Shown here: one piece after another, positions 1 through 38,775 of the stretch
Layout of the letters: each line of letters begins with the position of its first letter
How positions within the stretch are numbered: position 1 is the first letter of the stretch
From: Escherichia coli
Lineage (GTDB): Bacteria > Pseudomonadota > Gammaproteobacteria > Enterobacterales > Enterobacteriaceae
Direction: 5' to 3' (one strand)
Assembly: GCF_003334255.1 (NCBI RefSeq)
Contig: NZ_QOWU01000027.1
Length of the DNA: 60,537 bases
The notes under the pieces: model-generated
Told to the model about the DNA's origin: nothing
Databases searched by the model: none
The model's input: only the letters and a program-made list of their open reading frames with translations
Program-made: the position numbers and the translations under genes

Positions 1-2351
1 AGTTATCGTGAGAGTAATTCATCGGCACGTTAAATCATATCAGGCGTAATACCACAACCCTTAAGTTAGCGCTTATGAGTAGTCTCCCCTCCCTGGCTTT
101 CGAAAAAGAAAAAATCGCCGATTCCGGTGCTGGATTTAGCGCCATTAGGCATTGAGCCAATCTGTTATCTGACAGAAGAAATCAGTAATCAACTTTTGGC
201 GAAATATATCTGGTATTCAAAACACATCACGGTTAGCCATGAAGAAAGTACTACCAACCTGTTGGCAAGGATGGGTTTTCAACGACGGATCGCTGGTACA
301 TATATTAAAGCTCCCGAAGCGGTAGTTGAGGCATGGCTAAATGAAGATTATTCAACCTTACTAAGTGAATTTAAGGTGTTTCATTCACCTACCGGGCATT
401 ATTGGCAGTTGGGGATTTTGACAACATTGCCGCTGGAGAAAGCAGTAAAAGCATGGAATGCCCTTACCCTATCTCCACATACCGATACCGAATACTCCAT
501 GTTACATTTTGGACTCAAAGGGTTACCTGGGTTAGTAAACTCACTTGCACGCTATCCACAAGAAGCCTTGCCCATCACGAATTACTTCGCAGCGAGTGAG
601 CTGGCACCTGCCGTCGCCCGCGCCTTCAACAAACTCAAAACCCTACGACAAGACGCCCGTAGCTGGCTGCTAAAATACCCGGAACATGCCATAACCGGCC
701 TGCTACCTGCGGCGCTCGGCAAAGCCGGTGAAGCCCAGGATAACGCCCGCGCTGCCTTGCGTATGCTTACCGAAAACGGTCATCAGCCATTACTGCAAGA
801 AATCGCCCGGCGTTATAACCAGCCGGAAGTAACAGACGCGGTGAACGCTCTGCTTGCGCTCGATCCCTTAGATAATCACCCGACAAAAATCCCCACTCTT
901 CCGGCCTTTTATCAGCCATCGCTCTGGACGCGCCCGGTATTAAAAGCAAACGCCCAATCACTGCCAGATAACGCCCTCCTCCACCTCGGTGAAATGCTCC
1001 GCTTCCCTCAGGAAGAGGCTCTATATCCGGGATTATTGCAGGTGAAAGATGCCTGTACCGCCGACTCACTGGCTGAATTTGCCTGGGATCTGTTTACCGC
1101 CTGGCAGACCGCTGGCGCGCCGTCGAAAGAAAGCTGGGCGTTCACTGCGTTAGGCGTTCTCGGTAACGATGACACCGCCCGCAAACTGACGCCATTAATC
1201 CGCGCCTGGCCTGGCGAATCTCAGCATAAACGTGCCACCGTTGGGTTGGATATTCTCGCTGCTATCGGTAGTGATATCGCCCTGATGCAGCTTAACGGCA
1301 TCGCCCAGAAACTGAAATTCAAAGCATTACAGGAGCGGGCAAAAGAAAAAATTGCCGACATTGCCGAAAGTCGCGAACTCACGGTGGCGGAGCTTGAAGA
1401 TCGGTTAGCACCGGATCTCGGTCTGGATGATAACGGTTCGCTGCTGCTGGATTTCGGCCCACGTCAGTTCACCGTCAGCTTTGATGAAACCTTAAAACCG
1501 TTTGTGCGCGATGCTTCCGGCAGCCGCCTGAAAGACCTGCCCAAACCAAACAAAAGCGATGATGAATCGCGGGCTGATGAGGCGGTTAACCGCTACAAAC
1601 TGCTGAAAAAAGATGCGCGTACCGTCGCCGCCCAGCAGGTGGCAAGGCTTGAATCCGCCATGTGCCTGCGCCGCCGCTGGTCACCAGAAAACTTCCAGCT
1701 CTTCCTGGTTGAGCACCCGATGGTTCGCCACTTAACCCGACGTCTGATTTGGGGCGTTTATAGCGCCGACAACCAGCTACAGGCGTGCTTTAGGGTAGCG
1801 GAAGATAACAGCTACAGCACCGCTGACGATGATCTTTTCACCCTGCCGGAAGGCGATATCTCTCTTGGTATTCCTCACGTTCTGGAAATATCACCGACGG
1901 ATGCTGCCGCCTTTGGTCAGCTTTTGCCGACTACGAACTGCTACCACCGTTCCGTCAGCTTGACCGTAACAGTTACGCCCTGACAGAAGCCGAGCGCAAT
2001 GCCAGCGAATTGATCCGCTGGGCAGGCAGAAAATGCCCGAGTGGTCGGGTAATGGGGCTGGCGAATAAAGGCTGGATAAAGGGCACCCCGCAGGATGCAG
2101 GCTGGATCGGCTGGATGATCAAACCTCTCGGTCGCTGGTCGTTAATCATGGAAATCGATGAAGGCTTTGCGGTAGGCATGTCGCCAGCCGAACTCAGCGC
2201 TGAGCAGCTCTTAAGCAAGCTGTGGCTATGGGAAGGCAAAGCAGAAAGATATGGCTGGGGGAGTAATTCAACACAGGAAGCGCAGTTCTCCGTAATCGAT
2301 GCCATCACCGCCAGCGAGCTAATTAACGATATTGAAGCCCTGTTTGAATAA
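1..2351 (+). pseudogene. molR: molR-like giant DUF4132-family gene, 3' portion, disrupted; window-truncated at 5' end
   Basis: ORF 127..1983 (GTG at 127, frame open back to 79) aligns block-for-block with YehI residues ~440-1150 (GEMLRF, FAWDLFTAWQ, LDFGPRQFTV, RLIWGVY). The homologous reading continues in another frame as ORF 2010..2351 (FADYELLPPFRQL...). The frame switch maps to a T-run at 1922-1925. Stops in all three frames within 1..78. Confidence 0.8.
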
Positions 2352-2360
2352 GGAAAGAGC

Positions 2361-5300
2361 ATGGACAAGGAATTACCGTGGCTGGCGGATAACGCCCAAC
2401 TGGAACTGAAATATAAAAAAGGCAAAACGCCGCTCAGTCATCGTCGCTGGCCGGGCGAACCAGTGTCCGTTATCACTGGAAGTCTCATCCAGACATTGGG
2501 TGATGAATTGCTACAAAAAGCTGAGAAGAAAAAAAACATTGTCTGGCGTTATGAGAATTTTTCACTGGAGTGGCAGTCCGCCATCACGCAGGCCATCAAC
2601 TTGATCGGCGAACACAAACCCTCAATCCCGGCCCGGACAATGGCGGCGCTAGCCTGTATCGCGCAAAATGACAGCCAACAGTTGCTCGACGAAATCGTCC
2701 AACAAGAGGGGCTGGAATATGCGACTGAGGTGGTGATTGCACGCCAGTTTATTGCGCGGTGTTATGAGAGTGATCCTCTGGTAGTGACATTGCAGTATCA
2801 GGACGAGGATTATGGCTATGGTTATCGCTCAGAAACCTATAACGAATTCGATCTCCGACTGCGTAAGCATCTCTCTCTGGCAGAGGAAAGCTGCTGGCAG
2901 CGTTGCGCCGACAAACTCATTGCCGCACTACCAGGAATAACCAAAGTTCGCCGCCCTTTTATTGCGCTGATCCTCCCGGAAAAACCAGAAATAGCCAATG
3001 AGTTGGTAGGCCTTGAATGCCCGCGAACTCATTTTCATTCTAAGGAGTGGTTAAAAGTTGTTGCTAATGACCCCACAGCGGTGAGAAAACTCGAACACTA
3101 CTGGAGCCAGGATATATTTAGCGATCGAGAAGCCAGCTACATGTCGCATGAAAACCACTTCGGCTACGCGGCCTGCGCCGCCCTTTTGCGCGAACAAGGA
3201 CTGGCAGCCATTCCGCGCCTCGCGATGTATGCCCATAAAGAAGATTGCGGCAGTCTGCTGGTACAAATTAACCATCCGCAAGTCATCCGCACCTTGCTAC
3301 TGGTGGCTGATAAAAACAAACCCAGCCTGCAACGTGTGGCTAAATACAGTAAAAACTTCCCCCATGCGACGCTCGCCGCACTGGCAGAACTGCTGGCGTT
3401 AACAGAACCACCAGCCCGCCCTGGTTATCCAATCATCGAAGACAAAAAGCTGCCTGCACAGCAAAAAGCACGCGATGAATACTGGCGTACGCTGTTACAA
3501 ACGCTGATGGCATCGCAGCCACAACTGGCAGCAGAAGTGATGCCGTGGTTAAGTACTCAACCCCAGTCAGTGCTGAAGAGTTATTTATCGGCACCGCCCA
3601 AACCGGTTATTGATGGCACCGATAACAGCAATCTGCCAGAAATCCTCGTTTCACCACCGTGGCGTAGTAAGAAAAAAATGACAGCTCCACGTCTTGATTT
3701 GGCACCGCTCGAATTAACTCCGCAAGTTTACTGGCAACCAGGCGAACAAGAGAGGCTTGCCGCCACTGAGCCTGCCCGTTATTTCAGCACGGAATCTCTT
3801 GCGCAACGCATGGAACAAAAAAGTGGACGAGTTGTATTACAGGAACTGGGTTTTGGGGATGATGTATGGCTGTTTCTGAATTATATACTCCCCGGAAAAC
3901 TGGATGCTGCACGCAATTCACTCATTGTTCAGTGGCATTACTACCAGGGGCGGGTTGAAGAGATCCTGAATGGCTGGAACTCCCCGGAAGCACAATTAGC
4001 AGAACAGGCGCTCCGCAGCGGTCACATAGAAGCGTTAATTAACATATGGGAAAATGACAACTACTCACGTTATCGTCCGGAAAAGAGTGTCTGGAACCTG
4101 TATTTATTGGCACAGTTGCCGCGTGAGATGGCTTTGACCTTCTGGCTGCGTATCAATGAGAAAAAGCATCTGTTCGCGGGTGAGGACTATTTTCTCAGTA
4201 TCCTCGGATTGGATGCGCTACCAGGTCTGCTGTTGGCTTTTTCACATCGTCCAAAAGAAACATTTCCGTTAATTTTAAATTTCGGCGCAACAGAACTGGC
4301 CCTGCCCGTTGCCCGCGTCTGGCACCGTTTTGCGGGCCAGCGTAATCTGGCTCGCCAGTGGATTTTACAATGGCCGGAACATACGGCTACTGCACTTATT
4401 CCACTCGTCTTTGTTAAACCCTGCGACAACAGCGAAGCGGCATTATTTGCCCTTCGTTTACTGTATGAACAAGGACATAGTGAATTACTGCAAACGGTTG
4501 CAAACCGCTGGGATCGCGCTGATATGTGGCCAGCCCTGGAAAAAATACTTACCCAGAACCCGATGGAAATTTACCCGGCACGCATTCCAAAAGCCCCTGA
4601 TTTCTGGCATCCGCAAATGTGGTCCAGGCCGCGCCTTATCACTAATAATCAAACTGTTACCAATGACGCTCTGGAAATTATCGGCGAAATGCTGCGCTTT
4701 ACCCAGGGGGGACGTTTTTATAGCGGGCTGGAACAACTGAAAACGTTCTGCCAGCCACAAACGCTGGCAGCTTTTGCCTGGGATCTCTTCACTGCGTGGC
4801 AACAAGCTGGTGCCCCCGCAAAAGACAACTGGGCATTTCTGGCGTTAAGTCTCTTTGGTGACGAAAGCACGGCACGGGATCTGACGACACAGATCCTCGC
4901 CTGGCCACAAGAAGGCAAATCTGCCCGTGCTGTCAGCGGCCTGAACATCCTTACCCTGATGAATAATGATATGGCGCTGATACAGCTGCATCATATATCG
5001 CAACGGGCTAAATCCCGCCCCTTACGTGATAACGCGGCGGAATTTCTTCAGGTGGTCGCAGAAAATCGCGGGCTAAGCCAGGAAGAGCTAGCGGACAGAT
5101 TAGTCCCAACCCTGGGCCTTGATGATCCGCAGGCGTTGAGTTTTGATTTTGGTCCCCGGCAGTTTACCGTTCGCTTCGATGAAAATCTCAACCCGGTTAT
5201 CTTTGATCAGCAAAACGTTCGCCAGAAAAGCGTTCCCCGTTTGCGCGCCGATGACGATCAACTGAAAGCGCCCGAGGCACTGGCCCGACTAAAAGGGCTA

Positions 5301-5993
5301 AAAAAAGATGCTACTCAGGTGAGCAAAAACCTGCTCCCGCGTCTTGAAACGGCCCTACGTACCACCCGACGCTGGTCGCTGGCAGATTTTCATTCTCTGT
5401 TTGTTAATCATCCCTTTACCCGTCTGGTTACCCAGCGATTAATATGGGGGGTTTATCCGGCAAATGAACCGCGTTGTTTACTCAAAGCCTTTCGTGTGGC
5501 CGCAGAGGGGGAGTTCTGCAATGCGCAAGATGAGCCAATTGACCTGCCTGCGGACGCTCTGATTGGCATTGCCCACCCGTTAGAAATGACAGCAGAAATG
5601 CGCAGTGAATTTGCACAGCTTTTTGCCGATTACGAAATTATGCCGCCTTTTCGCCAGTTGTCGCGCCGCACGGTGCTGCTCACACCTGACGAGTCAACCA
5701 GTAACAGCCTGACTCGCTGGGAAGGTAAATCCGCTACCGTTGGGCAACTTATGGGAATGCGATACAAAGGCTGGGAGTCAGGCTATGAGGACGCATTTGT
5801 CTATAACCTGGGTGAGTACCGGCTGGTCCTTAAGTTTTCACCCGGTTTTAACCACTACAATGTTGATAGCAAAGCGCTAATGAGCTTCCGTTCTCTTCGA
5901 GTGTACCGTGACAATAAATCCGTCACTTTTGCCGAACTTGATGTGTTTGATTTGAGTGAGGCGTTAAGCGCACCTGACGTCATTTTCCATTAA
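2361..5993 (+). CDS. yehI: YehI, large DUF4132-family protein of unknown function (1210 aa)
   Basis: Single ORF of 1210 aa; ATG at 2361 preceded by AAGGAAAGAG; C-terminal ~700 aa paralogous to the molR fragment upstream. Confidence 0.93.
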   Translation: MDKELPWLADNAQLELKYKKGKTPLSHRRWPGEPVSVITGSLIQTLGDELLQKAEKKKNIVWRYENFSLEWQSAITQAINLIGEHKPSIPARTMAALACIAQNDSQQLLDEIVQQEGLEYATEVVIARQFIARCYESDPLVVTLQYQDEDYGYGYRSETYNEFDLRLRKHLSLAEESCWQRCADKLIAALPGITKVRRPFIALILPEKPEIANELVGLECPRTHFHSKEWLKVVANDPTAVRKLEHYWSQDIFSDREASYMSHENHFGYAACAALLREQGLAAIPRLAMYAHKEDCGSLLVQINHPQVIRTLLLVADKNKPSLQRVAKYSKNFPHATLAALAELLALTEPPARPGYPIIEDKKLPAQQKARDEYWRTLLQTLMASQPQLAAEVMPWLSTQPQSVLKSYLSAPPKPVIDGTDNSNLPEILVSPPWRSKKKMTAPRLDLAPLELTPQVYWQPGEQERLAATEPARYFSTESLAQRMEQKSGRVVLQELGFGDDVWLFLNYILPGKLDAARNSLIVQWHYYQGRVEEILNGWNSPEAQLAEQALRSGHIEALINIWENDNYSRYRPEKSVWNLYLLAQLPREMALTFWLRINEKKHLFAGEDYFLSILGLDALPGLLLAFSHRPKETFPLILNFGATELALPVARVWHRFAGQRNLARQWILQWPEHTATALIPLVFVKPCDNSEAALFALRLLYEQGHSELLQTVANRWDRADMWPALEKILTQNPMEIYPARIPKAPDFWHPQMWSRPRLITNNQTVTNDALEIIGEMLRFTQGGRFYSGLEQLKTFCQPQTLAAFAWDLFTAWQQAGAPAKDNWAFLALSLFGDESTARDLTTQILAWPQEGKSARAVSGLNILTLMNNDMALIQLHHISQRAKSRPLRDNAAEFLQVVAENRGLSQEELADRLVPTLGLDDPQALSFDFGPRQFTVRFDENLNPVIFDQQNVRQKSVPRLRADDDQLKAPEALARLKGLKKDATQVSKNLLPRLETALRTTRRWSLADFHSLFVNHPFTRLVTQRLIWGVYPANEPRCLLKAFRVAAEGEFCNAQDEPIDLPADALIGIAHPLEMTAEMRSEFAQLFADYEIMPPFRQLSRRTVLLTPDESTSNSLTRWEGKSATVGQLMGMRYKGWESGYEDAFVYNLGEYRLVLKFSPGFNHYNVDSKALMSFRSLRVYRDNKSVTFAELDVFDLSEALSAPDVIFH

Positions 5994-6053
5994 AACACAG
6001 CGGGCAGTGATGCAACTGCCCGTTATCAACACGACTTACCAGCGGGGAAAGCG

Positions 6054-6371
6054 ATGATCGTGCAAAAAGAGCTGGTTGCTATTTACGATTATGAGGTCCC
6101 TGTACCTGAAGATCCGTTTTCCTTCAGACTTGAGATCCATAAATGCTCTGAATTATTTACAGGTTCCGTCTATCGACTGGAGCGATTCCGGCTACGTCCA
6201 ACATTTCATCAACGTGATCGAGAAGATGCTGACCCGCTAATAAATGATGCGTTGATTTATATAAGAGATGAGTGTATTGATGAGCGGAAATTACGAGGTG
6301 AATCACCTGAAACTGTAATAGCAATTTTTAATCGTGAACTACAGAATATATTCAACCAAGAAATAGAATAA
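6054..6371 (+). CDS. yehK: YehK, small protein of unknown function (105 aa)
   Basis: ORF 6054..6371; GGGGAAAG upstream of ATG; length matches E. coli YehK. Confidence 0.85.
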   Translation: MIVQKELVAIYDYEVPVPEDPFSFRLEIHKCSELFTGSVYRLERFRLRPTFHQRDREDADPLINDALIYIRDECIDERKLRGESPETVIAIFNRELQNIFNQEIE

Positions 6372-6540
6372 TATACTCTAAATAATTCAAATTGGTCCGA
6401 TCCGGCGCAACGTCCCAATGGCCTGGATTATAAATCTCATTATCTTAATTGCAACGGGGTCCAGCCGTGGTTATAATTCGTTCGTTGGAACACGATGTTG
6501 CACAGGCTGTGGTGTTAGGCCTGAAAATAGTAAATAAAAG

Positions 6541-6572
6541 AACCTGCCTCACCAGCAGGTTTTTTTATTTAC
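6541..6572 (+). terminator. Rho-independent terminator (hairpin ACCTGC-CTCACCA-GCAGGT followed by T7)
   Basis: Perfect 6-bp GC-rich stem, 7-nt loop, then TTTTTTTATTT on the + strand, about 170 bp downstream of the yehK stop. Confidence 0.8.
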
Positions 6573-6677
6573 TGTGATCTGCTTTCCAGATATTTTTCGC
6601 TCAAACAACTAATGCGCCAAACATTTATTGCGCGTAAAATATCGTTTATTTCATTAATACATTTCAGGGATGAATAT

Positions 6678-7766
6678 ATGTCACCGCAGAATAATCATCT
6701 GCAGCGTCCGCCTGCTGCTGTGTTATACGCCGATGAACTGGCAAAATTAAAACAAAATGATAACGCACCTTGCCCGCCCGGTTGGCAGTTAAGTTTGCCT
6801 GCGGCCCGTGCTTTTATCCTTGGCGACGAAGCGCAAAATATCAGCCGTAAAGTGGTGATTAGCCCCTCCGCTGTCGAACGTATGTTAGTCACTCTTGCTA
6901 CCGGCCGCGGTTTGATGTTGGTGGGGGAACCGGGTACCGCAAAATCTCTTCTTTCTGAATTACTGGCAACCGCTATTAGCGGCGATGCCGGGTTAACCAT
7001 CCAGGGCGGGGCATCTACCACCGAAGATCAAATCAAGTATGGCTGGAACTACGCCCTGCTTATCAATCATGGTCCGTCAACGGAAGCGCTGGTCCCTGCC
7101 CCGCTTTATCAGGGAATGCGCGACGGCAAAATCGTCCGTTTCGAAGAGATAACGCGTACACCGCTGGAAGTGCAGGACTGTCTGTTAGGTATGCTTTCTG
7201 ACAGGGTGATGACGGTGCCGGAACTCACTGGTGAAGCCAGTCAGCTCTATGCGCGAGAAGGCTTTAATATTATTGCCACTGCCAATACCCGCGATCGCGG
7301 CGTCAATGAAATGAGTGCTGCGCTAAAGCGTCGCTTCGATTTTGAAACGGTTTTTCCGATTATGGATTTCGCCCAGGAGTTGGAACTGGTCGCCAGTGCT
7401 TCGGCGCGTTTGCTGGCCCATAGCGGTATTCCGCATAAAGTGCCTGACGCGGTACTGGAATTACTGGTCCGCACCTTCCGCGATCTGCGTGCCAACGGCG
7501 AAAAGAAAACGTCAATGGATACACTGACAGCGATTATGTCCACCGCTGAAGCCGTGAACGTGGCCCATGCTGTGGGCGTCCGCGCCTGGTTTTTAGCGAA
7601 TCGCGCGGGGGAGCCTGCCGACCTGGTGGAATGTATTGCCGGAACCATCGTCAAAGATAACGAAGAAGATCGCGCGCGTCTGCGCCGTTACTTCGAACAG
7701 CGTGTCGCCACACATAAAGAAGCTCACTGGCAGGCTTATTATCAAGCCCGCCACCGCCTGCCGTGA
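6678..7766 (+). CDS. yehL: YehL, MoxR/AAA_5-type AAA+ ATPase (362 aa)
   Basis: ORF track 6612..7766; start placed at ATG 6678 (MSPQNNH) to give the 362-aa length. Walker A GEPGTAKS at ~6925-6948; Walker B-like VRFEEITR; stop TGA at 7764-7766. Confidence 0.9.
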   Translation: MSPQNNHLQRPPAAVLYADELAKLKQNDNAPCPPGWQLSLPAARAFILGDEAQNISRKVVISPSAVERMLVTLATGRGLMLVGEPGTAKSLLSELLATAISGDAGLTIQGGASTTEDQIKYGWNYALLINHGPSTEALVPAPLYQGMRDGKIVRFEEITRTPLEVQDCLLGMLSDRVMTVPELTGEASQLYAREGFNIIATANTRDRGVNEMSAALKRRFDFETVFPIMDFAQELELVASASARLLAHSGIPHKVPDAVLELLVRTFRDLRANGEKKTSMDTLTAIMSTAEAVNVAHAVGVRAWFLANRAGEPADLVECIAGTIVKDNEEDRARLRRYFEQRVATHKEAHWQAYYQARHRLP

Positions 7767-7776
7767 GGAAAGATGC

Positions 7777-10056
7777 ATGAGCGAGCCGTTAATTGTCGGC
7801 ATCCGGCATCATAGTCCGGCCTGCGCCCGGCTGGTGAAATCGTTAATCGAAAGCCAGCGGCCACGATACGTGTTGATTGAAGGCCCGGCTGATTTTAATG
7901 ACCGGGTAGACGAACTGTTTTTAGCCCACCAGCTTCCGGTAGCTATTTACAGTTATTGCCAGTATCAGGACGGTGCAGCCCCCGGGCGTGGTGCCTGGAC
8001 GCCATTTGCTGAATTTTCGCCGGAGTGGCAGGCGCTACAAGCCGCACGTCGCATTCAGGCACAAACTTACTTCATCGATTTGCCTTGCTGGGCGCAGAGT
8101 GAAGAAGAGGACGATTCGCCTGATACGCAAGATGAAAGCCAGGCCTTACTGCTGCGTGCCACCCGCATGGATAACAGCGATACCCTGTGGGATCACTTGT
8201 TCGAAGATGAAAGCCAGCAAACTGCATTACCCTCTGCGCTGGCGCACTATTTTGCCCAACTGCGGGGCGACGCCTCCGGCGATGCGCTCAATCGTCAGCG
8301 CGAAGCCTTTATGGCCCGCTGGATTGGATGGGCGATGCAGCAAAATAATGGCGACGTGTTAGTTGTCTGCGGTGGCTGGCACGCTCCGGCACTGGCAAAG
8401 ATGTGGCGCGAATGCCCTCAGAAAATTAACAAGCCAGAATTGCCCTCGCTGGCAGATGCCGTTACAGGTTGTTATCTCACACCCTACAGTGAAAAGCGCC
8501 TTGATGTGCTGGCAGGATACCTTTCAGGAATGCCTGCCCCGGTATGGCAAAACTGGTGCTGGCAGTGGGGCTTGCAGAAGGCCGGTGAACAACTGCTAAA
8601 AACTATCCTTACCCGTTTGCGCCAGCACAAATTGCCCGCTTCTACCGCGGATATGGCTGCCGCTCATCTGCATGCGATGGCGCTGGCACAGTTGCGCGGT
8701 CATACACTACCGTTACGCACTGACTGGCTGGATGCCATAGCAGGCTCGCTGATTAAAGAAGCCCTGAACGCGCCGTTGCCGTGGAGCTATCGCGGCGTTA
8801 TTCATCCCGATACCGATCCGATTCTGCTAACGTTGATAGACACATTAGCGGGTGACGGATTCGGTAAACTTGCCCCTTCTACGCCACAACCGCCTCTGCC
8901 AAAAGATGTCACCTGCGAACTGGAACGTACCGCAATCTCCCTTCCGGCGGAGCTTACCTTAAATCGCTTTACCCCCGATGGGCTGGCGCAAAGTCAGGTG
9001 TTACATCGGCTGGCAATACTGGAGATCCCTGGGATTGTACGCCAGCAGGGAAGTACACTGACACTTGCAGGCAACGGTGAAGAACGCTGGAAATTAACCC
9101 ACCCGCTTAGCCAGCATGCGGCATTGATTGAGGCCGCCTGCTTTGGCGCCACGCTCCAGGAAGCCGCACGCAATAAATTAGAAGCCGATATGCTGGACGC
9201 GGGTGGAATCGGCTGCATCACCGCATGTCTTAGCCAGGCGGCGTTAGCGAGTCTGGCGTCCTTCAGTCAACAATTACTGAAGCAACTCACGTTATTAATC
9301 GCCCAGGAAAATCAATTTGCCGAAATGGGCCCGGCGCTGGAAGTGCTATATGCCTTATGGCGGCTGGATGAAATTAGCGGTATGCAAGGTGCGCAGATAT
9401 TACAAACGACGTTATGCGCGGCTATCGATCGCACGCTGTGGCTGTGTGAATCCAACGGCAGACCGGATGAAAAGGAGTTTCACGCTCACCTGCATAGCTG
9501 GCAAGCGTTGTGCCATATTCTGCGCGATCTGCATAGCGGCGTTAATTTACCCGGCGTTTCTCTTTCTGCGGCGGTAGCCTTACTGGAGCGACGCAGTCAG
9601 GCGATTCATGCCCCGGCGCTGGATCGCGGCGCGACTCTTGGTGCGCTGATGCGTCTGGAACATCCCAACGCCAGTGCCGAAGCGGCGCTGACAATGCTGG
9701 CGCAGTTATCCCCGGCACAATCCGGCGAGGCGCTGCACGGTTTGCTGGCATTAGCCCGTCATCAACTGGCCTGTCAGCCGGCATTTATCGCCGGTTTCAG
9801 CAGTCATTTAAATCAACTAAGTGATGCCGATTTTACCAATGCCCTGCCCGATTTACGCGCGGCAATGGCCTGGCTACCGCCACGAGAACGCGGGACGCTG
9901 GCGCATCAGGTGCTTGAGCATTATCAACTGGCGCAACTTCCCGTTTCGGCACTGCAAATGCCGTTGCATTGTCCACCGCAAGCCATTGCACATCATCAAC
10001 AACTCGAACAGCAGGCACTGGCATCGCTGCAACACTGGGGAGTTTTCCATGTCTGA
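7777..10056 (+). CDS. yehM: YehM, protein of unknown function (759 aa)
   Basis: ORF track 7636..10056; start ATG 7777 (MSEPLIVGIRHH), 10 nt after the yehL stop, preceded by GAGGAAAG. Confidence 0.88.
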   Translation: MSEPLIVGIRHHSPACARLVKSLIESQRPRYVLIEGPADFNDRVDELFLAHQLPVAIYSYCQYQDGAAPGRGAWTPFAEFSPEWQALQAARRIQAQTYFIDLPCWAQSEEEDDSPDTQDESQALLLRATRMDNSDTLWDHLFEDESQQTALPSALAHYFAQLRGDASGDALNRQREAFMARWIGWAMQQNNGDVLVVCGGWHAPALAKMWRECPQKINKPELPSLADAVTGCYLTPYSEKRLDVLAGYLSGMPAPVWQNWCWQWGLQKAGEQLLKTILTRLRQHKLPASTADMAAAHLHAMALAQLRGHTLPLRTDWLDAIAGSLIKEALNAPLPWSYRGVIHPDTDPILLTLIDTLAGDGFGKLAPSTPQPPLPKDVTCELERTAISLPAELTLNRFTPDGLAQSQVLHRLAILEIPGIVRQQGSTLTLAGNGEERWKLTHPLSQHAALIEAACFGATLQEAARNKLEADMLDAGGIGCITACLSQAALASLASFSQQLLKQLTLLIAQENQFAEMGPALEVLYALWRLDEISGMQGAQILQTTLCAAIDRTLWLCESNGRPDEKEFHAHLHSWQALCHILRDLHSGVNLPGVSLSAAVALLERRSQAIHAPALDRGATLGALMRLEHPNASAEAALTMLAQLSPAQSGEALHGLLALARHQLACQPAFIAGFSSHLNQLSDADFTNALPDLRAAMAWLPPRERGTLAHQVLEHYQLAQLPVSALQMPLHCPPQAIAHHQQLEQQALASLQHWGVFHV

Positions 10057-11185
10057 ACTGAACGATCTTCTGACCACCCGTGAGCTACAACGCTGGCGAT
10101 TAATTCTTGGCGAAGCGGCAGAAACGACGCTTTGTGGGCTGGATGACAACGCCCGGCAGATAGACCACGCGCTGGAGTGGCTGTATGGGCGCGATCCTGA
10201 ACGGCTCCAGCGTGGTGAACGCTCCGGTGGATTAGGTGGCTCAAATCTCACCACCCCTGAGTGGATCAACAGTATTCACACGCTGTTTCCGCAACAGGTG
10301 ATTGAGCGGCTGGAAAGCGATGCCGTACTGCGCTACGGCATTGAAGATGTGGTGACAAATCTCGACGTGCTGGAACGTATGCAGCCTTCCGAAAGCCTGC
10401 TACGCGCCGTTTTGCACACCAAACATCTGATGAATCCCGAAGTACTGGCTGCCGCCCGCCAGATAGTGCGCCAGGTTGTTGAAGAAATTATGGCGCGACT
10501 GGCAAAGGAAGTTCGCCAGGCTTTTTCTGGTGTCCGCGATCGCCGTCGCCGTTCATTTGTTCCACTGGCGCGAAACTTTGATTTCAAAAGTACTCTGCGC
10601 GCCAACCTGCAACACTGGCACCCGCAACACGGCAAGTTGTATATCGAATCCCCCCGCTTTAACAGCCGCATTAAACGCCAAAGCGAACAATGGCAACTGG
10701 TCTTACTGGTTGATCAAAGCGGCTCGATGGTCGATTCGGTGATCCACTCTGCGGTGATGGCGGCCTGTTTGTGGCAGTTACCCGGCATTCGTACCCATCT
10801 GGTGGCGTTTGACACAAGCGTCGTTGATCTCACGGCAGACGTTGCCGATCCGATAGAGTTATTAATGAAAGTGCAATTAGGCGGCGGAACCAATATCGCC
10901 AGTGCCATGGAGTATGGTCGGCAACTTATTGAACAACCTGAAAAAAGCGTCATTATCCTAGTGAGCGATTTTTATGAAGGGGGTTCATCATCATTGCTGA
11001 CGCATCAGGTGAAAAAGTGTGTCCAGAGCGGCATCAAAGTGCTGGGACTGGCAGCGCTCGATAGCACAGCAACGCCTTGCTATGACCGCGATACGGCCCA
11101 GGCGCTGGTTAATGTCGGCGCACAAATAGCCGCCATGACACCGGGCGAGCTGGCATCATGGCTTGCGGAGAATCTTCAGTCATGA
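10049..11185 (+). CDS. yehP: YehP, von Willebrand factor A (VWA, CoxE-like) protein with complete MIDAS motif (378 aa)
   Basis: ORF track 9821..11185; start ATG 10049 (MSELNDLL) overlaps the yehM stop by 8 nt. MIDAS D-x-S-x-S (LVDQSGSM) at ~10711-10728, plus downstream T and D residues. Confidence 0.88.
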   Translation: MSELNDLLTTRELQRWRLILGEAAETTLCGLDDNARQIDHALEWLYGRDPERLQRGERSGGLGGSNLTTPEWINSIHTLFPQQVIERLESDAVLRYGIEDVVTNLDVLERMQPSESLLRAVLHTKHLMNPEVLAAARQIVRQVVEEIMARLAKEVRQAFSGVRDRRRRSFVPLARNFDFKSTLRANLQHWHPQHGKLYIESPRFNSRIKRQSEQWQLVLLVDQSGSMVDSVIHSAVMAACLWQLPGIRTHLVAFDTSVVDLTADVADPIELLMKVQLGGGTNIASAMEYGRQLIEQPEKSVIILVSDFYEGGSSSLLTHQVKKCVQSGIKVLGLAALDSTATPCYDRDTAQALVNVGAQIAAMTPGELASWLAENLQS

Positions 11186-13182
11186 ATTCACTACGTCCGG
11201 AATTATTAGAACTGACACCGCAGGCACTGACGGCGTTAAGCAATGCCGGTTTTGTTAAGCGCAGTCTTAAGGAACTGGAAAATGGCAACGTCCCGGAAAT
11301 CAGCCATGAGAACGGCGCTTTAATCGCCACCTTCAGTGACGGTGTCCATACCCAGCTGGCGAACGGCCAGGCACTGAAAGAGGCTCAGTGCACCTGTGGG
11401 GCCAGCGGCATGTGCCGTCATCGCGTGATGCTGGTGTTAAGTTATCAACGACTTTGTGCTACCGCCCAGCCTACGGGAAAAGAAGAGGAATGGGATCCGG
11501 CAATCTGGCTGGAAGAACTGGCTACCCTTCCCGATGCCACCCGCAAACGCGCACAGGTATTGGTCGCTAAAGGCATCACCATTGAGTTGTTATGTGCGCC
11601 GGGTGAAATTCCCTCTGCCCGCTTACCGATGAGCGATGTGCGTTTTTATTCCCGCAGCAGTATTCGTTTCGCCCGTTGTGATTGTATTGAAGGCACACTT
11701 TGCGAACATGTCGTACTGGCTGTGCAGGCCTTCGTCGAGGCCAAAGCGCAGCAAGCGGAATTTACTCATTTAATCTGGCAGATGCGCAGCGAACACGTCA
11801 CATCATCTGACGATCCGTTTGCCAGCGAAGAGGGCAACGCGTGTCGTCAATATGTTCAGCAATTAAGCCAGACATTATGGCTTGGCGGCATCAGCCAGCC
11901 GCTTATTCACTACGAGGCAGCATTCAACCGCGCATTGCAGGCGGCAGAGACCTGCAACTGGCGCTGGGTGAGTGAATCGCTACGGCAACTGCGCGCCAGC
12001 GTTGATGCCTTCCACGCCCGCGCCAGCCACTATAATGCCGGAGAATGCTTACATCAGCTTGCGGCATTAAACAGTCGATTAAATTGCGCACAAGAGATGG
12101 CCCGGCGCGACAGTATTGGTGAAGTTCCTCCTGTGCCGTGGCGCACGGTCGTTGGCTCTGGCATTGCCGGAGAAGCAAAGCTTGATCATCTGCGGCTGGT
12201 GTCTTTAGGTATGCGTTGCTGGCAGGATATTGAGCATTATGGTTTACGCATCTGGTTTACCGATCCCGACACCGGCAGTATTTTGCACCTTTCGCGCAGT
12301 TGGCCGCGAAGTGAACAGGAAAACTCACCGGCAGCTACGCGTCGGCTGTTTAGTTTTCAGGCTGGCGCACTGGCGGGCGGGCAAATTGTTTCACAAGCAG
12401 CAAAACGCAGTGCCGATGGCGAGCTGCTGTTAGCTACCCGCAACCGCTTAAGCAGCGTTGTGCCGCTGTCGCCTGATGCCTGGCAAATGTTGAGCGCGCC
12501 GTTACGCCAGCCGGGCATTGTGGCTTTGCGGGAATATTTACGCCAGCGTCCCCCCGCCTGCATACGGCCTCTTAATCAGGTCGATAACTTATTTATTCTG
12601 CCGGTCGCTGAGTGTATTTCGCTCGGTTGGGATAGCAGCCGCCAGACGCTGGATGCGCAGGTAATCAGCGGCGAAGGTGAAGATAATCTGCTGACGTTAT
12701 CACTGCCAGCCTCAGCCAGCGCGCCTTATGCCGTTGAACGCATGGCGGCGCTTTTGCAACAAACAGACGACCCCGTGTGTCTGGTTTCTGGCTTTGTCAG
12801 TTTTGTTGATGGGCAATTGACACTGGAACCACAGGTAATTATGACAAAGACTCGTGCCTGGGCGCTGGACGCTGAAACTGCGCCTGTGGCACCACTACCT
12901 TCTGCCAGCGTTTTGCCTGTGCCGTCTACTGCTCATCAGTTGCTGATGCGCTGCCAGGCGTTACTTATTCAACTGCTCCATAACGGCTGGCGCTATCAGG
13001 AACAGAGCGCTATTAGTCAGGCAGAGTTGCTGGCGAATGACCTCACCGCGGTGGGTTTTTATCGGCTGGCACATGTGTTGGGGCAATTTCGTAATACAGA
13101 AAGCGAGGCACGGGTAGAAGCAATAAATAACGGTGTTTTGCTTTGCGAACAATTATTCCCCATGCTTCAGCAACAAGGATGA
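11182..13182 (+). CDS. yehQ: YehQ, protein with two SWIM-type zinc-finger motifs (C-x-C-x5-C-x-H)
   Basis: ORF track 11158..13182; start ATG 11182 (MNSLRPELL) overlaps the yehP stop as ATGA. CTCGASGMCRH at ~11389-11421 and CDCIEGTLCEH at ~11677-11710. Exact start is uncertain. Confidence 0.82.
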   Translation: MNSLRPELLELTPQALTALSNAGFVKRSLKELENGNVPEISHENGALIATFSDGVHTQLANGQALKEAQCTCGASGMCRHRVMLVLSYQRLCATAQPTGKEEEWDPAIWLEELATLPDATRKRAQVLVAKGITIELLCAPGEIPSARLPMSDVRFYSRSSIRFARCDCIEGTLCEHVVLAVQAFVEAKAQQAEFTHLIWQMRSEHVTSSDDPFASEEGNACRQYVQQLSQTLWLGGISQPLIHYEAAFNRALQAAETCNWRWVSESLRQLRASVDAFHARASHYNAGECLHQLAALNSRLNCAQEMARRDSIGEVPPVPWRTVVGSGIAGEAKLDHLRLVSLGMRCWQDIEHYGLRIWFTDPDTGSILHLSRSWPRSEQENSPAATRRLFSFQAGALAGGQIVSQAAKRSADGELLLATRNRLSSVVPLSPDAWQMLSAPLRQPGIVALREYLRQRPPACIRPLNQVDNLFILPVAECISLGWDSSRQTLDAQVISGEGEDNLLTLSLPASASAPYAVERMAALLQQTDDPVCLVSGFVSFVDGQLTLEPQVIMTKTRAWALDAETAPVAPLPSASVLPVPSTAHQLLMRCQALLIQLLHNGWRYQEQSAISQAELLANDLTAVGFYRLAHVLGQFRNTESEARVEAINNGVLLCEQLFPMLQQQG

Positions 13183-13258
13183 AATAGTGCTTTTTACTAA
13201 GAGCTCTACTCCAGTTCCGGACTGCTCACGCCACGGTATTAGGCATATCCTATATAGC

Positions 13259-13286
13259 CCCTGGTGAGAGTCACCAGTTTCTTGAT
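13259..13286 (+). terminator. Rho-independent terminator downstream of yehQ
   Basis: Perfect inverted repeat CTGGTGA-GAG-TCACCAG followed by TTTCTTGATT. Confidence 0.7.
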
Positions 13287-13306
13287 TAAATAAAATGGAG
13301 TTTTAC

Positions 13307-16948: not shown

Positions 16949-17680
16949 ATGGCGCTTTACACAATTGGTGAAGTGGCGTTGCTTTGTGATATTAATCCTG
17001 TCACGTTACGCGCGTGGCAGAGGCGTTACGGATTGCTGAAACCGCAACGGACAGACGGCGGTCATCGGCTGTTCAACGATGCCGATATTGACCGGATCCG
17101 CGAGATCAAACGCTGGATCGACAACGGCGTGCAGGTCAGCAAAGTTAAAATGCTGCTCAGTAATGAAAATGTTGATGTGCAGAACGGCTGGCGCGATCAG
17201 CAAGAAACATTACTGACTTACCTGCAAAGCGGCAATCTACATAGCCTGCGAACGTGGATCAAAGAGCGCGGTCAGGATTACCCCGCCCAGACACTCACCA
17301 CACATCTGTTTATTCCTCTGCGCCGACGGCTTCAGTGCCAACAACCGACTCTCCAGGCGCTGCTGGCGATCCTCGACGGCGTACTGATCAACTACATCGC
17401 CATTTGTCTGGCTTCGGCACGTAAAAAACAGGGTAAAGATGCGCTGGTGGTTGGCTGGAATATTCAGGATACCACCCGTCTGTGGCTGGAGGGCTGGATT
17501 GCCAGTCAACAAGGATGGCGCATTGATGTCCTCGCCCACTCGCTCAATCAACTACGCCCTGAACTATTCGAAGGCCGTACATTGCTGGTGTGGTGCGGTG
17601 AAAATCGAACCTCCGCCCAACAGCAGCAACTCACCAGTTGGCAAGAACAAGGCCATGATATTTTCCCACTCGGCATTTAA
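16949..17680 (+). CDS. mlrA: MlrA, MerR-family transcriptional regulator (243 aa)
   Basis: ORF 16949..17680; N-terminal MerR HTH (YTIGEVALLCDINPVTLRAWQRRYGLL). Confidence 0.92.
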   Translation: MALYTIGEVALLCDINPVTLRAWQRRYGLLKPQRTDGGHRLFNDADIDRIREIKRWIDNGVQVSKVKMLLSNENVDVQNGWRDQQETLLTYLQSGNLHSLRTWIKERGQDYPAQTLTTHLFIPLRRRLQCQQPTLQALLAILDGVLINYIAICLASARKKQGKDALVVGWNIQDTTRLWLEGWIASQQGWRIDVLAHSLNQLRPELFEGRTLLVWCGENRTSAQQQQLTSWQEQGHDIFPLGI

Positions 17681-26953: not shown

Positions 26954-27126
26954 GATGAGCATTCAGATAGTGGTTCACGCGCACGGGTTGCGCACCGCCG
27001 GAGTAAGGATTTACTGAGGCTAGCGACGCCATCATAACGAGCAAAAAGTGCGATCGTCAAAGGAGAATCGTGAGGAAATGCTGCATTGCTGACATTTACG
27101 CCAGCAATGCAACGTCAAAGAACTTT

Positions 27127-38591: not shown

Positions 38592-38775
38592 GACGCATCC
38601 GGCATTTGGTTCCTGTCGCCGGATGCGGCTTGAACGCCTTATCCGGCCTACAAAACCATACAAATCAGTATGTTGAGCTTATTGTAGGCCGGATAAAACG
38701 CGCCAGCGTTGCATCCGGCATTTGGCTCCTGTTGCCGGATGCGGCGTGAACGCCTTATCCGGCCTACAAAACCAC
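38592..38775. repeat. BIME cluster (several REP units in alternating orientation)
   Basis: Repeated GCCGGATGCGGC(T/G)TGAACGCCTTATCCGGCCTACAAAACC units and inverted copies between preA and mglC. Confidence 0.88.

Follow-up and report, generated by a model that had tools for sequence, protein, structure and literature searches.

The genes yehL, yehM, yehP and yehQ of Escherichia coli, located at positions 6678 to 13182 of the 60,537-nucleotide stretch of contig NZ_QOWU01000027.1 analyzed here (the whole stretch is further referred to as the window), belong to a five-gene cassette. In this cassette, yehLMPQ is the constant part, whereas the DUF4132 protein (represented by MolR and YehI in E. coli) is encoded by one, two or three genes in tandem and evolves faster. 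The original prediction, made from the sequence alone, had presented the four genes as a complete architecture composed of an ATPase, a von Willebrand factor A (VWA) protein, a SWIM protein and a large adaptor, and had envisaged a nucleoside triphosphate (NTP)-dependent machine for sensing or remodeling. The general idea of such a machine fits our observations, but the operon is only four-fifths of the system. Tentatively, and with a confidence that stays somewhat short of even, we read the cassette as an ATP-driven motor, composed of a MoxR ATPase and a protein with a metal ion-dependent adhesion site (MIDAS), to which a hydrolase is coupled and which is directed by subunits that bind nucleic acid, with DUF4132 proteins as exchangeable modules. 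The genes and the subfamily of YehL were already known; what is new is the anatomy at the level of the system. It also remains correct that yehLMPQ has no assigned function: in a full-text literature search, we came across no functional study of yehLMPQ, and neither the five-gene unit nor the fold of YehM or YehQ was found described, although domain databases may already record the folds.

The five-gene unit is apparent from the six-frame open reading frames (ORFs) of 86 loci outside E. coli, which were searched with the E. coli proteins. A DUF4132 protein, YehL, YehM, YehP and YehQ are encoded on one strand in 77 of these loci, most commonly in the order DUF4132, yehL, yehM, yehP, yehQ. Taxa with the cassette comprise Gamma-, Beta- and Alphaproteobacteria, Myxococcota, Actinomycetota, Acidobacteriota and Bacillota. 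All four genes of the original prediction occur together in 82 of the 86 loci. Their co-conservation is thereby borne out and the four-part architecture holds to that extent, but it lacked the DUF4132 protein as a fifth conserved component (77 of 86). About half of the nine exceptions are truncated by contig ends (L020, L042, L048, L072 and probably L085); in the others, the DUF4132 gene lies on the opposite strand (L036), or no DUF4132 (L058) or no YehQ (L038, L050) was detected. Two or three tandem DUF4132 copies are present in about 33 of the 77 complete loci, among them one locus with five DUF4132 ORF hits, and three further complete loci carry two copies that are not adjacent. A large DUF4132 protein adjoins the four genes in Variovorax and Serratia and likewise on plasmids of Bacillus mycoides, Sinorhizobium and Iodobacter and on a linear plasmid of Streptomyces. 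All five genes are also closely spaced in Bacillus, Streptomyces, Variovorax and Serratia: the DUF4132 gene and yehL are 59 nt apart in Serratia and 15 nt in Bacillus, and overlap by 4 nt in Streptomyces. Because of this short spacing in other taxa, the split in E. coli, where yehK and an orz RNA stand in between, is regarded as secondary. Among the loci compared by phmmer, yehK was matched in the E. coli loci L001 and L002 and in no other.

YehM is the most distinctive component, with 2247 relatives (E <= 1e-3) among representatives of 50%-identity clusters and at least 563 encoding loci in a pattern scan of one genome per species. The cassette occurs in at least several hundred species from at least five phyla, so that a function found in relatives of E. 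coli would transfer widely. A sixth cassette member was considered and rejected: in an all-against-all clustering of 583 flanking ORFs from 84 non-E. coli loci, no family was present in more than eight loci. Of the two largest flank clusters, one or both resemble an ORF antisense to a core gene. Three cluster representatives of 980-1180 amino acids (P0287, P0350 and P0322) comprise a DUF5682 region followed by a YehP-like VWA region. These putative YehM-YehP fusions are given no weight, since they could be gene-calling artefacts across overlapping stops.

In the window, the E. coli version of the cassette and its immediate surroundings comprise the following features:

127..2351, + strand: 3' remnant of molR (WGR plus DUF4132 paralogue), interrupted by IS421 and carrying a frameshift (ORFs 127-1983 and 2010-2351)
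2361..5993, + strand: yehI, a MolR-like DUF4132 protein of 1210 amino acids without WGR (Pfam DUF4132, 4.7e-47)
6054..6371, + strand: yehK, a small ORF of 105 amino acids annotated as protein YehK, outside the conserved cassette
6449..6566, + strand: promoter-like site (6449-6477, promoter scan) followed by an OrzO-P antitoxin-type small RNA (6491-6566, Rfam)
6541..6572, strand not set: GC-rich hairpin and T tract that terminate the OrzO-P RNA
6678..7766, + strand: yehL, a MoxR-type AAA+ ATPase (Pfam AAA_5, 2.6e-34)
7777..10056, + strand: yehM, a DUF5682 protein (Pfam DUF5682, 7e-98)
10049..11185, + strand: yehP, a CoxE-type VWA protein with a complete MIDAS (Pfam VWA_CoxE, 1e-70)
10910..10922, + strand: +1 ribosomal frameshift-prone site GAG TAT GGT CGG C within yehP (exact match)
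11182..13182, + strand: yehQ, 666 amino acids, intact in this strain (Pfam SWIM, 1.5e-3 and 0.21)
13261..13286, + strand: terminator-like hairpin (13261-13277) with a T-rich tail 3' of yehQ

The predicted arrangement of the four + strand genes, with a 10-nt gap between yehL and yehM, an 8-nt overlap between yehM and yehP and an ATGA overlap between yehP and yehQ, is read directly from the sequence. Megablast of positions 6600-13300 shows 100% identity to E. coli strain G1/2, in which the RefSeq gene calls are the same yehL, yehM, yehP and yehQ at the same positions. The same search gives a match in 5369 of 5426 complete E. coli genomes, 5203 of them with at least 80% query coverage, nearly always at a single chromosomal site.

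For each protein, homologues from the 86 non-E. coli loci were extracted and aligned, and motifs were counted. YehL is confirmed as an AAA+ protein by its AAA_5 match and by a Walker A motif (GEPGTAKS) that is invariant in 87 of 87 homologues. The atypical Walker B noticed earlier, RFEEITR, is equally invariant (87/87). It reads (I/V)VRFEE, with E-E for D-E, and so differs from the canonical hhhhDE; given its invariance, it is a subfamily signature and not a sign of decay. TANTRD and KRRF are invariant as well (87/87). YehL is one of seven named MoxR subfamilies (PMC3893208). The nearest solved sequences are midasin AAA modules (6.7e-10), and the match between YehL and bpMoxR (PF20030) is marginal (E 0.0024 over 50 residues). 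The VWA/MIDAS partner of a MoxR ATPase is provided by yehP, two genes downstream of yehL in the same operon. Its full MIDAS site was called correctly: D222, S224, S226, T281 and D307 are invariant in 84 of 84 homologues. NCBIfam matches are all far below cutoff (GvpN for YehL; MadB, McrB; a cobaltochelatase subunit for YehP). The frameshift-prone cassette GAG TAT GGT CGG C is a published one (PMC2790909); a frameshift at 10910-10922 would truncate YehP just before the region of the last MIDAS aspartate.

YehM had been described as a large adaptor without a recognizable motif, a description that cannot be maintained. Besides the DUF5682 match, the AlphaFold2 model of YehM (85 diverse sequences; predicted local distance difference test, pLDDT, 93.4; predicted template modeling score, pTM, 0.91) is confident and predicts an alpha/beta domain at approximately residues 1-260, followed by a HEAT-like helical repeat scaffold. 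The predicted N-terminal domain shares the fold of the TIKI/TraB/EreA/ChaN superfamily. The structural relatives of the model are, with their scores, a TraB family protein (11.5), ChaN (10.2), two EreA-like proteins (10.1 and 8.5), the HopBA1 effector (9.6), EreC (7.8), the Pasteurella toxin (7.7) and RRSP (7.1); HEAT-like repeat proteins (TAF6, symplekin) rank after these TIKI-fold relatives. A Pfam scan of every member of the YehM alignment returned, after DUF5682, ChaN for three members (best 5.5e-3) and TraB/PrgY/GumN for one, and a sequence search of the PDB with YehM gave no match. Invariant or near-invariant residues across the 85 sequences are R10 H11 H12 S13 P14, E35, H51, E83, D101, R175 E176 M179 and G199/H202. 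They include the invariant motifs GxRHHS, E35 and GGxH, at what we take to be the positions of the GxxHxS, E and GxxH motifs of TraB/TIKI proteins. On the grounds of the fold relatives and the invariant His/Glu motifs, YehM probably has a hydrolase domain of the TIKI type, with protease or esterase activity, that is carried by the helical scaffold, and YehM would then be the enzyme of the cassette.

The two SWIM fingers assigned to YehQ do not have the same standing. Finger 1 follows the C-x-C-x(n)-C-x-H pattern of the family, is kept as C-x-C-x5-C-x-H in 76 of 77 homologues and is detected by Pfam (1.5e-3). Finger 2 (Pfam, 0.21) is kept in 34 of 77 only, with non-cysteine residues in its place in the remaining homologues, and is therefore not essential to the family. 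The YehQ model (70 sequences; pLDDT 92.1, pTM 0.89) comprises finger 1 (C70-H80), the lineage-specific finger 2 (C166-H176), a four-helix bundle, a pair resembling oligonucleotide/oligosaccharide-binding (OB) folds and a C-terminal helical bundle. The top Foldseek ranks for YehQ are taken by tandem-OB binders of single-stranded DNA (LEF-3, Teb1 AB, CTC1, RPA70 DBD-A/B, POT1, HIN and SSBs), with a probability up to 0.99 and a best E-value of 2.6e-3. The beta-rich blocks at approximately 331-428 and 470-561 of the model are thus probably a tandem OB pair, with weak E-values. PDB searches with the YehQ sequence and a YehQ profile yielded no match.

DUF4132 ORF hits were obtained in 83 of the non-E. 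coli loci. In 48 of these, an N-terminal WGR domain is present in one or more of the DUF4132 proteins. Intact homologues of molR in other genomes carry both WGR and DUF4132. YehI aligns to a MolR-like WGR-DUF4132 protein of Serratia from residue 130 of the latter onward, which identifies YehI as a WGR-less paralogue of MolR. Klebsiella has the same MolR and YehI pair. Within E. coli, the tandem array of DUF4132 genes that precedes yehK varies: some strains have three such genes and not two (for instance L089, positions 1-7358, and L090, positions 1-6819), and the third paralogue is present at a coverage of at least 80% in 690 of the 5426 complete genomes. PDB searches with YehI and a DUF4132 profile found no related solved structure. 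In the strain under study, an IS4-like element, IS421 (window 1-126; L001 4314-5423), has inserted in molR and parts its WGR-bearing 5' portion from the DUF4132 3' portion; the 3' part is frameshifted in addition.

In the reading that we tentatively prefer, YehL would form a MoxR-type AAA+ ring on which YehP docks, and the metal of the intact and invariant MIDAS would grip an acidic residue of a partner, for which the invariant D1090-Y-E1092 of YehI is a candidate. YehM would supply a catalytic hydrolase domain of the TIKI/TraB/EreA type on its helical scaffold. Judging from their predicted folds, YehQ (SWIM and tandem OB) and the WGR of MolR-type proteins may bind nucleic acid, probably single-stranded or broken DNA. 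ATP hydrolysis could then remodel a protein associated with that nucleic acid or expose it to hydrolysis. A more specific version is rather unlikely, namely a nucleic-acid-cued protease machine driven by the AAA+/MIDAS pair, in which OB folds, SWIM and exchangeable WGR-DUF4132 sensors would recognize invading or damaged DNA. Delivery of a DNA-associated protein by the MoxR-VWA motor to a TIKI-type protease, as this version supposes, is no more probable. If true, such a protease machine would amount either to an immune mechanism of a new kind or to the bacterial equivalent of the AAA+-assisted proteolysis of DNA-protein crosslinks, and a nucleic-acid-triggered protease would extend MoxR-VWA biology from cofactor insertion to genome surveillance.

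Several points weigh against the proposed motor-hydrolase machine. All fold assignments derive from predicted structures, and every protein-protein contact in the model is one that we infer. Catalysis by YehM is not assured, as the TIKI superfamily includes non-enzymes (ChaN binds haem). The OB-fold matches of YehQ are weak by Foldseek E-value, its SWIM finger 2 is missing from more than half of the family, and WGR is absent in many actinobacterial cassettes. In the searchable literature, we found neither a biochemical nor a genetic phenotype. Furthermore, the locus frequently decays in E. coli: in K-12, yehQ contains an internal stop and molR a frameshift, yehP is frameshifted in strain 30859_5#287, and molR is interrupted by IS421 in the strain studied here. 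DGF-298, a derivative of K-12 with a reduced genome, lacks the entire block, which is already decayed in K-12. As K-12 lost yehQ and molR and as the DUF4132 partner lies outside the operon, work on yehLMPQ alone or in K-12 is likely to fail.

The boundaries of the operon bear on its regulation. The hairpin at 6541-6572, proposed earlier as an upstream terminator of the operon, is present but belongs to the 3' end of the OrzO-P small RNA, which is a full-length match to Rfam RF02083 (99.9 bits versus a gathering score of 60). The downstream terminator was found as a hairpin with a T-rich tail that is merely terminator-like. The sole sigma-70-like promoter on the + strand of the yehK-yehL gap lies just 5' of the small RNA and not of yehL. 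Type I toxin-antitoxin modules of the zor-orz type have been published for this intergenic region (PMC2887945); no small ORF for a ZorO/ZorP-like toxin was found beside the OrzO-P RNA, which makes it an orphan small RNA. In other E. coli strains, the gap measures 0.7-1.2 kb. The orz hairpin is a barrier to read-through from yehI and yehK, and transcription of yehLMPQ in E. coli therefore requires a separate promoter within the AT-rich 110 nt that precede yehL. H-NS binding has been mapped to this intergenic stretch, and hns/stpA mutants show increased expression of yehL and yehM (PMC3686432). The E. coli cassette may be seen as an H-NS-silenced, horizontally acquired accessory module, which would have been split into the units molR-yehI-yehK and yehLMPQ by the insertion of the orz small RNA.

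The cassette genes are maintained by purifying selection, with the motor as the most and DUF4132 as the least constrained component. Among four E. coli alleles, the ratio of nonsynonymous to synonymous substitution rates (dN/dS) is 0.03-0.06 for yehL, 0.06-0.08 for yehP, 0.09-0.12 for yehM, 0.09-0.20 for yehQ and 0.20-0.28 for yehI, compared to 0 for btsS and 0.01-0.02 for bglX in the flanks. In pairs that involve the divergent alleles (L089 or L090), synonymous divergence is mostly 0.15-0.24 in the cassette versus 0.04-0.09 in btsS and btsR. The cassette genes are older or more recombined than their surroundings. Sporadic spread, a copy-variable and fast-evolving DUF4132 and H-NS silencing fit an accessory conflict or stress module.

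A conflict role directed at invading DNA is conceivable yet doubtful. In its concrete form, an anti-phage or anti-plasmid immune system in which DUF4132/WGR and SWIM-OB sense invading nucleic acid and MoxR-VWA licenses YehM as an abortive or targeted effector, it is somewhat unlikely, and the defence idea of the original prediction received no direct support. The sporadic spread across phyla, including plasmids, would suit such a system. Yet, unlike typical variable islands, the cassette occupies one fixed site in nearly every E. coli genome (approximately 96-99%), and it is near-absent from phage and viral collections save for prophage-boundary artefacts. The variation in DUF4132 copy number between species and within E. 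coli, the weakest constraint acting on DUF4132 and a synonymous divergence of the cassette at three to five times that of flanking genes all speak for such a system, but dN/dS is well below 1 throughout. Regulation by H-NS silencing and by BglJ-RcsB, which activates molR (PMC3950696), the toxin-antitoxin RNA modules inside the locus and the toxins and effectors among the TIKI-fold relatives of YehM (HopBA1, RRSP, PMT) are further points in its favor. A type I restriction-modification system adjoins the cassette on the Iodobacter plasmid, but this is the only adjacent restriction-modification system among the annotated non-E. coli loci inspected. Finally, YehI, YehK, YehL, YehM, YehP and YehQ have no match in PADLOC-DB v2 at E <= 0.01, and 37 immediate neighbors from 20 diverse loci only gave generic PADLOC matches (kinase, primase, permease and MzaA C-terminal domain), among which no defence system was recognizable.

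Carriage of the cassette by phages was considered and rejected. There is one weak match among 50,697 phage records and one match among 2.9 million viral contigs of IMG/VR (L091); the latter is 98% identical to E. coli YehM and therefore likely a prophage-boundary overshoot. The families phrog_30700, 33984, 31592, 29006, 20839, 36602 and 36295 of PHROGs are near-identical to fragments of E. coli YehM, YehP, YehQ, YehI and YehK, which is best explained by prophage predictions that overrun into the yeh locus. Further downstream in the window, from approximately 16949-17014 onward (L001 22350-30701), mlrA (yehV) is reduced to its first 66 nt after btsS, and the genes that come next are of the DinI-like, tail-fibre and host-specificity-J kinds. 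The gene mlrA, a known phage integration site, thus appears to have received a lambdoid prophage. Two other Rfam matches, both on the - strand, lie far from yehLMPQ: naRNA4 (CssrE, 88 bits) at 38687-38764 and a Peptidase-S11 cis-regulatory RNA (73 bits) at 26958-27038.

An orientation toward the cell's own DNA is less probable still. Stress on self-DNA is an unlikely theme for the cassette, and the same holds, slightly more strongly, for a DNA-damage-response machine that extracts or cleaves DNA-trapped proteins, loosely like Cdc48/p97 with Wss1/SPRTN. The cassette unites WGR, SWIM and RPA-like OB folds, an AAA+ motor and a putative protease fold, which agrees with such a machine. In E. coli, molR is listed as a LexA-regulon gene (PMC6590174) and a box-like site, CTGGATAAAATTACAG, with one mismatch to the LexA box lies 25 nt 5' of its ATG, but the orz terminator separates the transcription of molR from that of yehLMPQ. 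In Deinococcus, DUF4132 and WGR proteins belong to the DdrO radiation/desiccation regulon and are induced through it. Upstream of the cassette, exact LexA/Cheo boxes are found in 0 of 28 proteobacterial and 0 of 22 actinomycetotal loci; one-mismatch boxes occur in 3 of 28 (5.9% in control windows) and 5 of 22 (10.6%), respectively. As the boxes are not enriched over control windows in these 50 upstream regions and only E. coli molR has one, SOS control was dropped as a defining feature. A sporadic and dispensable cassette is also unlike core repair functions.

A third alternative departs from the family of the motor: a MoxR-VWA maturation chaperone or chelatase-like metal insertion machine in the manner of CoxD-CoxE, NorQ-NorD, CbbQ-CbbO or CobS-CobT-CobN, with DUF4132 as substrate-holding subunit. 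We consider this explanation improbable, and a role in cofactor maturation in general hardly probable. YehP belongs to the CoxE VWA family (1e-70) with a weak match to a cobaltochelatase subunit, YehL weakly matches GvpN and a phage 'porphyrin biosynthesis' AAA family, and YehM shares its predicted fold with the haem-binding ChaN. The three sizes also parallel class I chelatases, which combine an AAA+ protein of approximately 40 kDa, a VWA protein and a subunit of 130-150 kDa, but the DUF4132 proteins have no CobN/BchH match in Pfam, and the WGR, SWIM and OB modules are left unexplained. The historical label of molR as 'molybdate metabolism regulator' rests on K-12, in which molR is a pseudogene. 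Moreover, no metalloenzyme or cofactor-pathway gene is conserved near the cassette, the flanks of which change from genus to genus (84 non-E. coli loci). The 'dedicated chaperone' suggested earlier is weakened likewise: in the flank clustering, no conserved client gene adjoins the cassette.

With molR and yehI, the yeh locus spans approximately 14 kb where molR is intact and ranks among the larger uncharacterized blocks of E. coli, of which hardly any strain lacks it. With the fold assignments, a locus of 'unknown function' becomes accessible to specific mutants and assays, directed at YehM as a putative hydrolase and at YehQ as a protein with OB folds of the single-stranded DNA-binding type.

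Compared to known systems, the motor-hydrolase machine that we tentatively propose shares parts with several and coincides with none. The vWA-MoxR-VMAP ternary NTP-dependent conflict systems (Kaur et al. 2020, as cited in PMC10910872) are alike, as far as that citing source describes them, in combining a MoxR ATPase, a vWA protein and large proteins in a self-contained, horizontally mobile cassette. However, Pfam scans of YehM, YehQ and YehI only revealed DUF5682, SWIM and DUF4132 and no VMAP or effector-associated domain; the match of YehL to bpMoxR is marginal, and PADLOC does not match the yeh cassette. Proteins of the TIKI/TraB-PrgY-GumN/EreA/ChaN superfamily resemble YehM in the GxxHxS, E and GGxH motifs, at presumably equivalent positions, and in weak Pfam ChaN/TraB matches of a few family members. 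This link is below Pfam significance, and in YehM the domain continues into a helical scaffold of approximately 500 residues and is part of a MoxR-VWA cassette. The tandem OB binders of single-stranded DNA RPA70, Teb1 and POT1 and the SWIM protein ZSWIM8 have no sequence similarity to YehQ, and the Foldseek E-values are weak.

For the motor itself, class I chelatases (BchI-BchD-BchH, CobS-CobT-CobN) equally unite a small AAA+ protein, a VWA/MIDAS protein and a very large third subunit, with weak model matches to YehP and YehL, but the large yeh subunit is not homologous by Pfam, there are extra subunits and a tetrapyrrole-pathway context is lacking. The MoxR/VWA pairs RavA-ViaA, CbbQ-CbbO, NorQ-NorD and CoxD-CoxE share the AAA_5 ATPase beside a gene for a VWA protein with intact MIDAS, in close or overlapping arrangement. 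The yeh cassette differs by three further obligatory partners (DUF5682, SWIM-OB and DUF4132), by the lack of an adjacent client enzyme and by the RFEE Walker B of YehL instead of hhhhDE; YehP shares the Pfam family VWA_CoxE with CoxD-CoxE systems, but no linkage of the yeh cassette to a client metalloenzyme operon was seen, and no neighbor family recurs in 84 non-E. coli loci. Midasin/Rea1, which provides the closest solved sequences to YehL, likewise combines an AAA_5 motor with a MIDAS domain, and this domain pulls on a protein ligand. Midasin, however, is a single giant eukaryotic polypeptide that acts on pre-ribosomes, whereas the yeh motor and MIDAS are separate small proteins with different partners.

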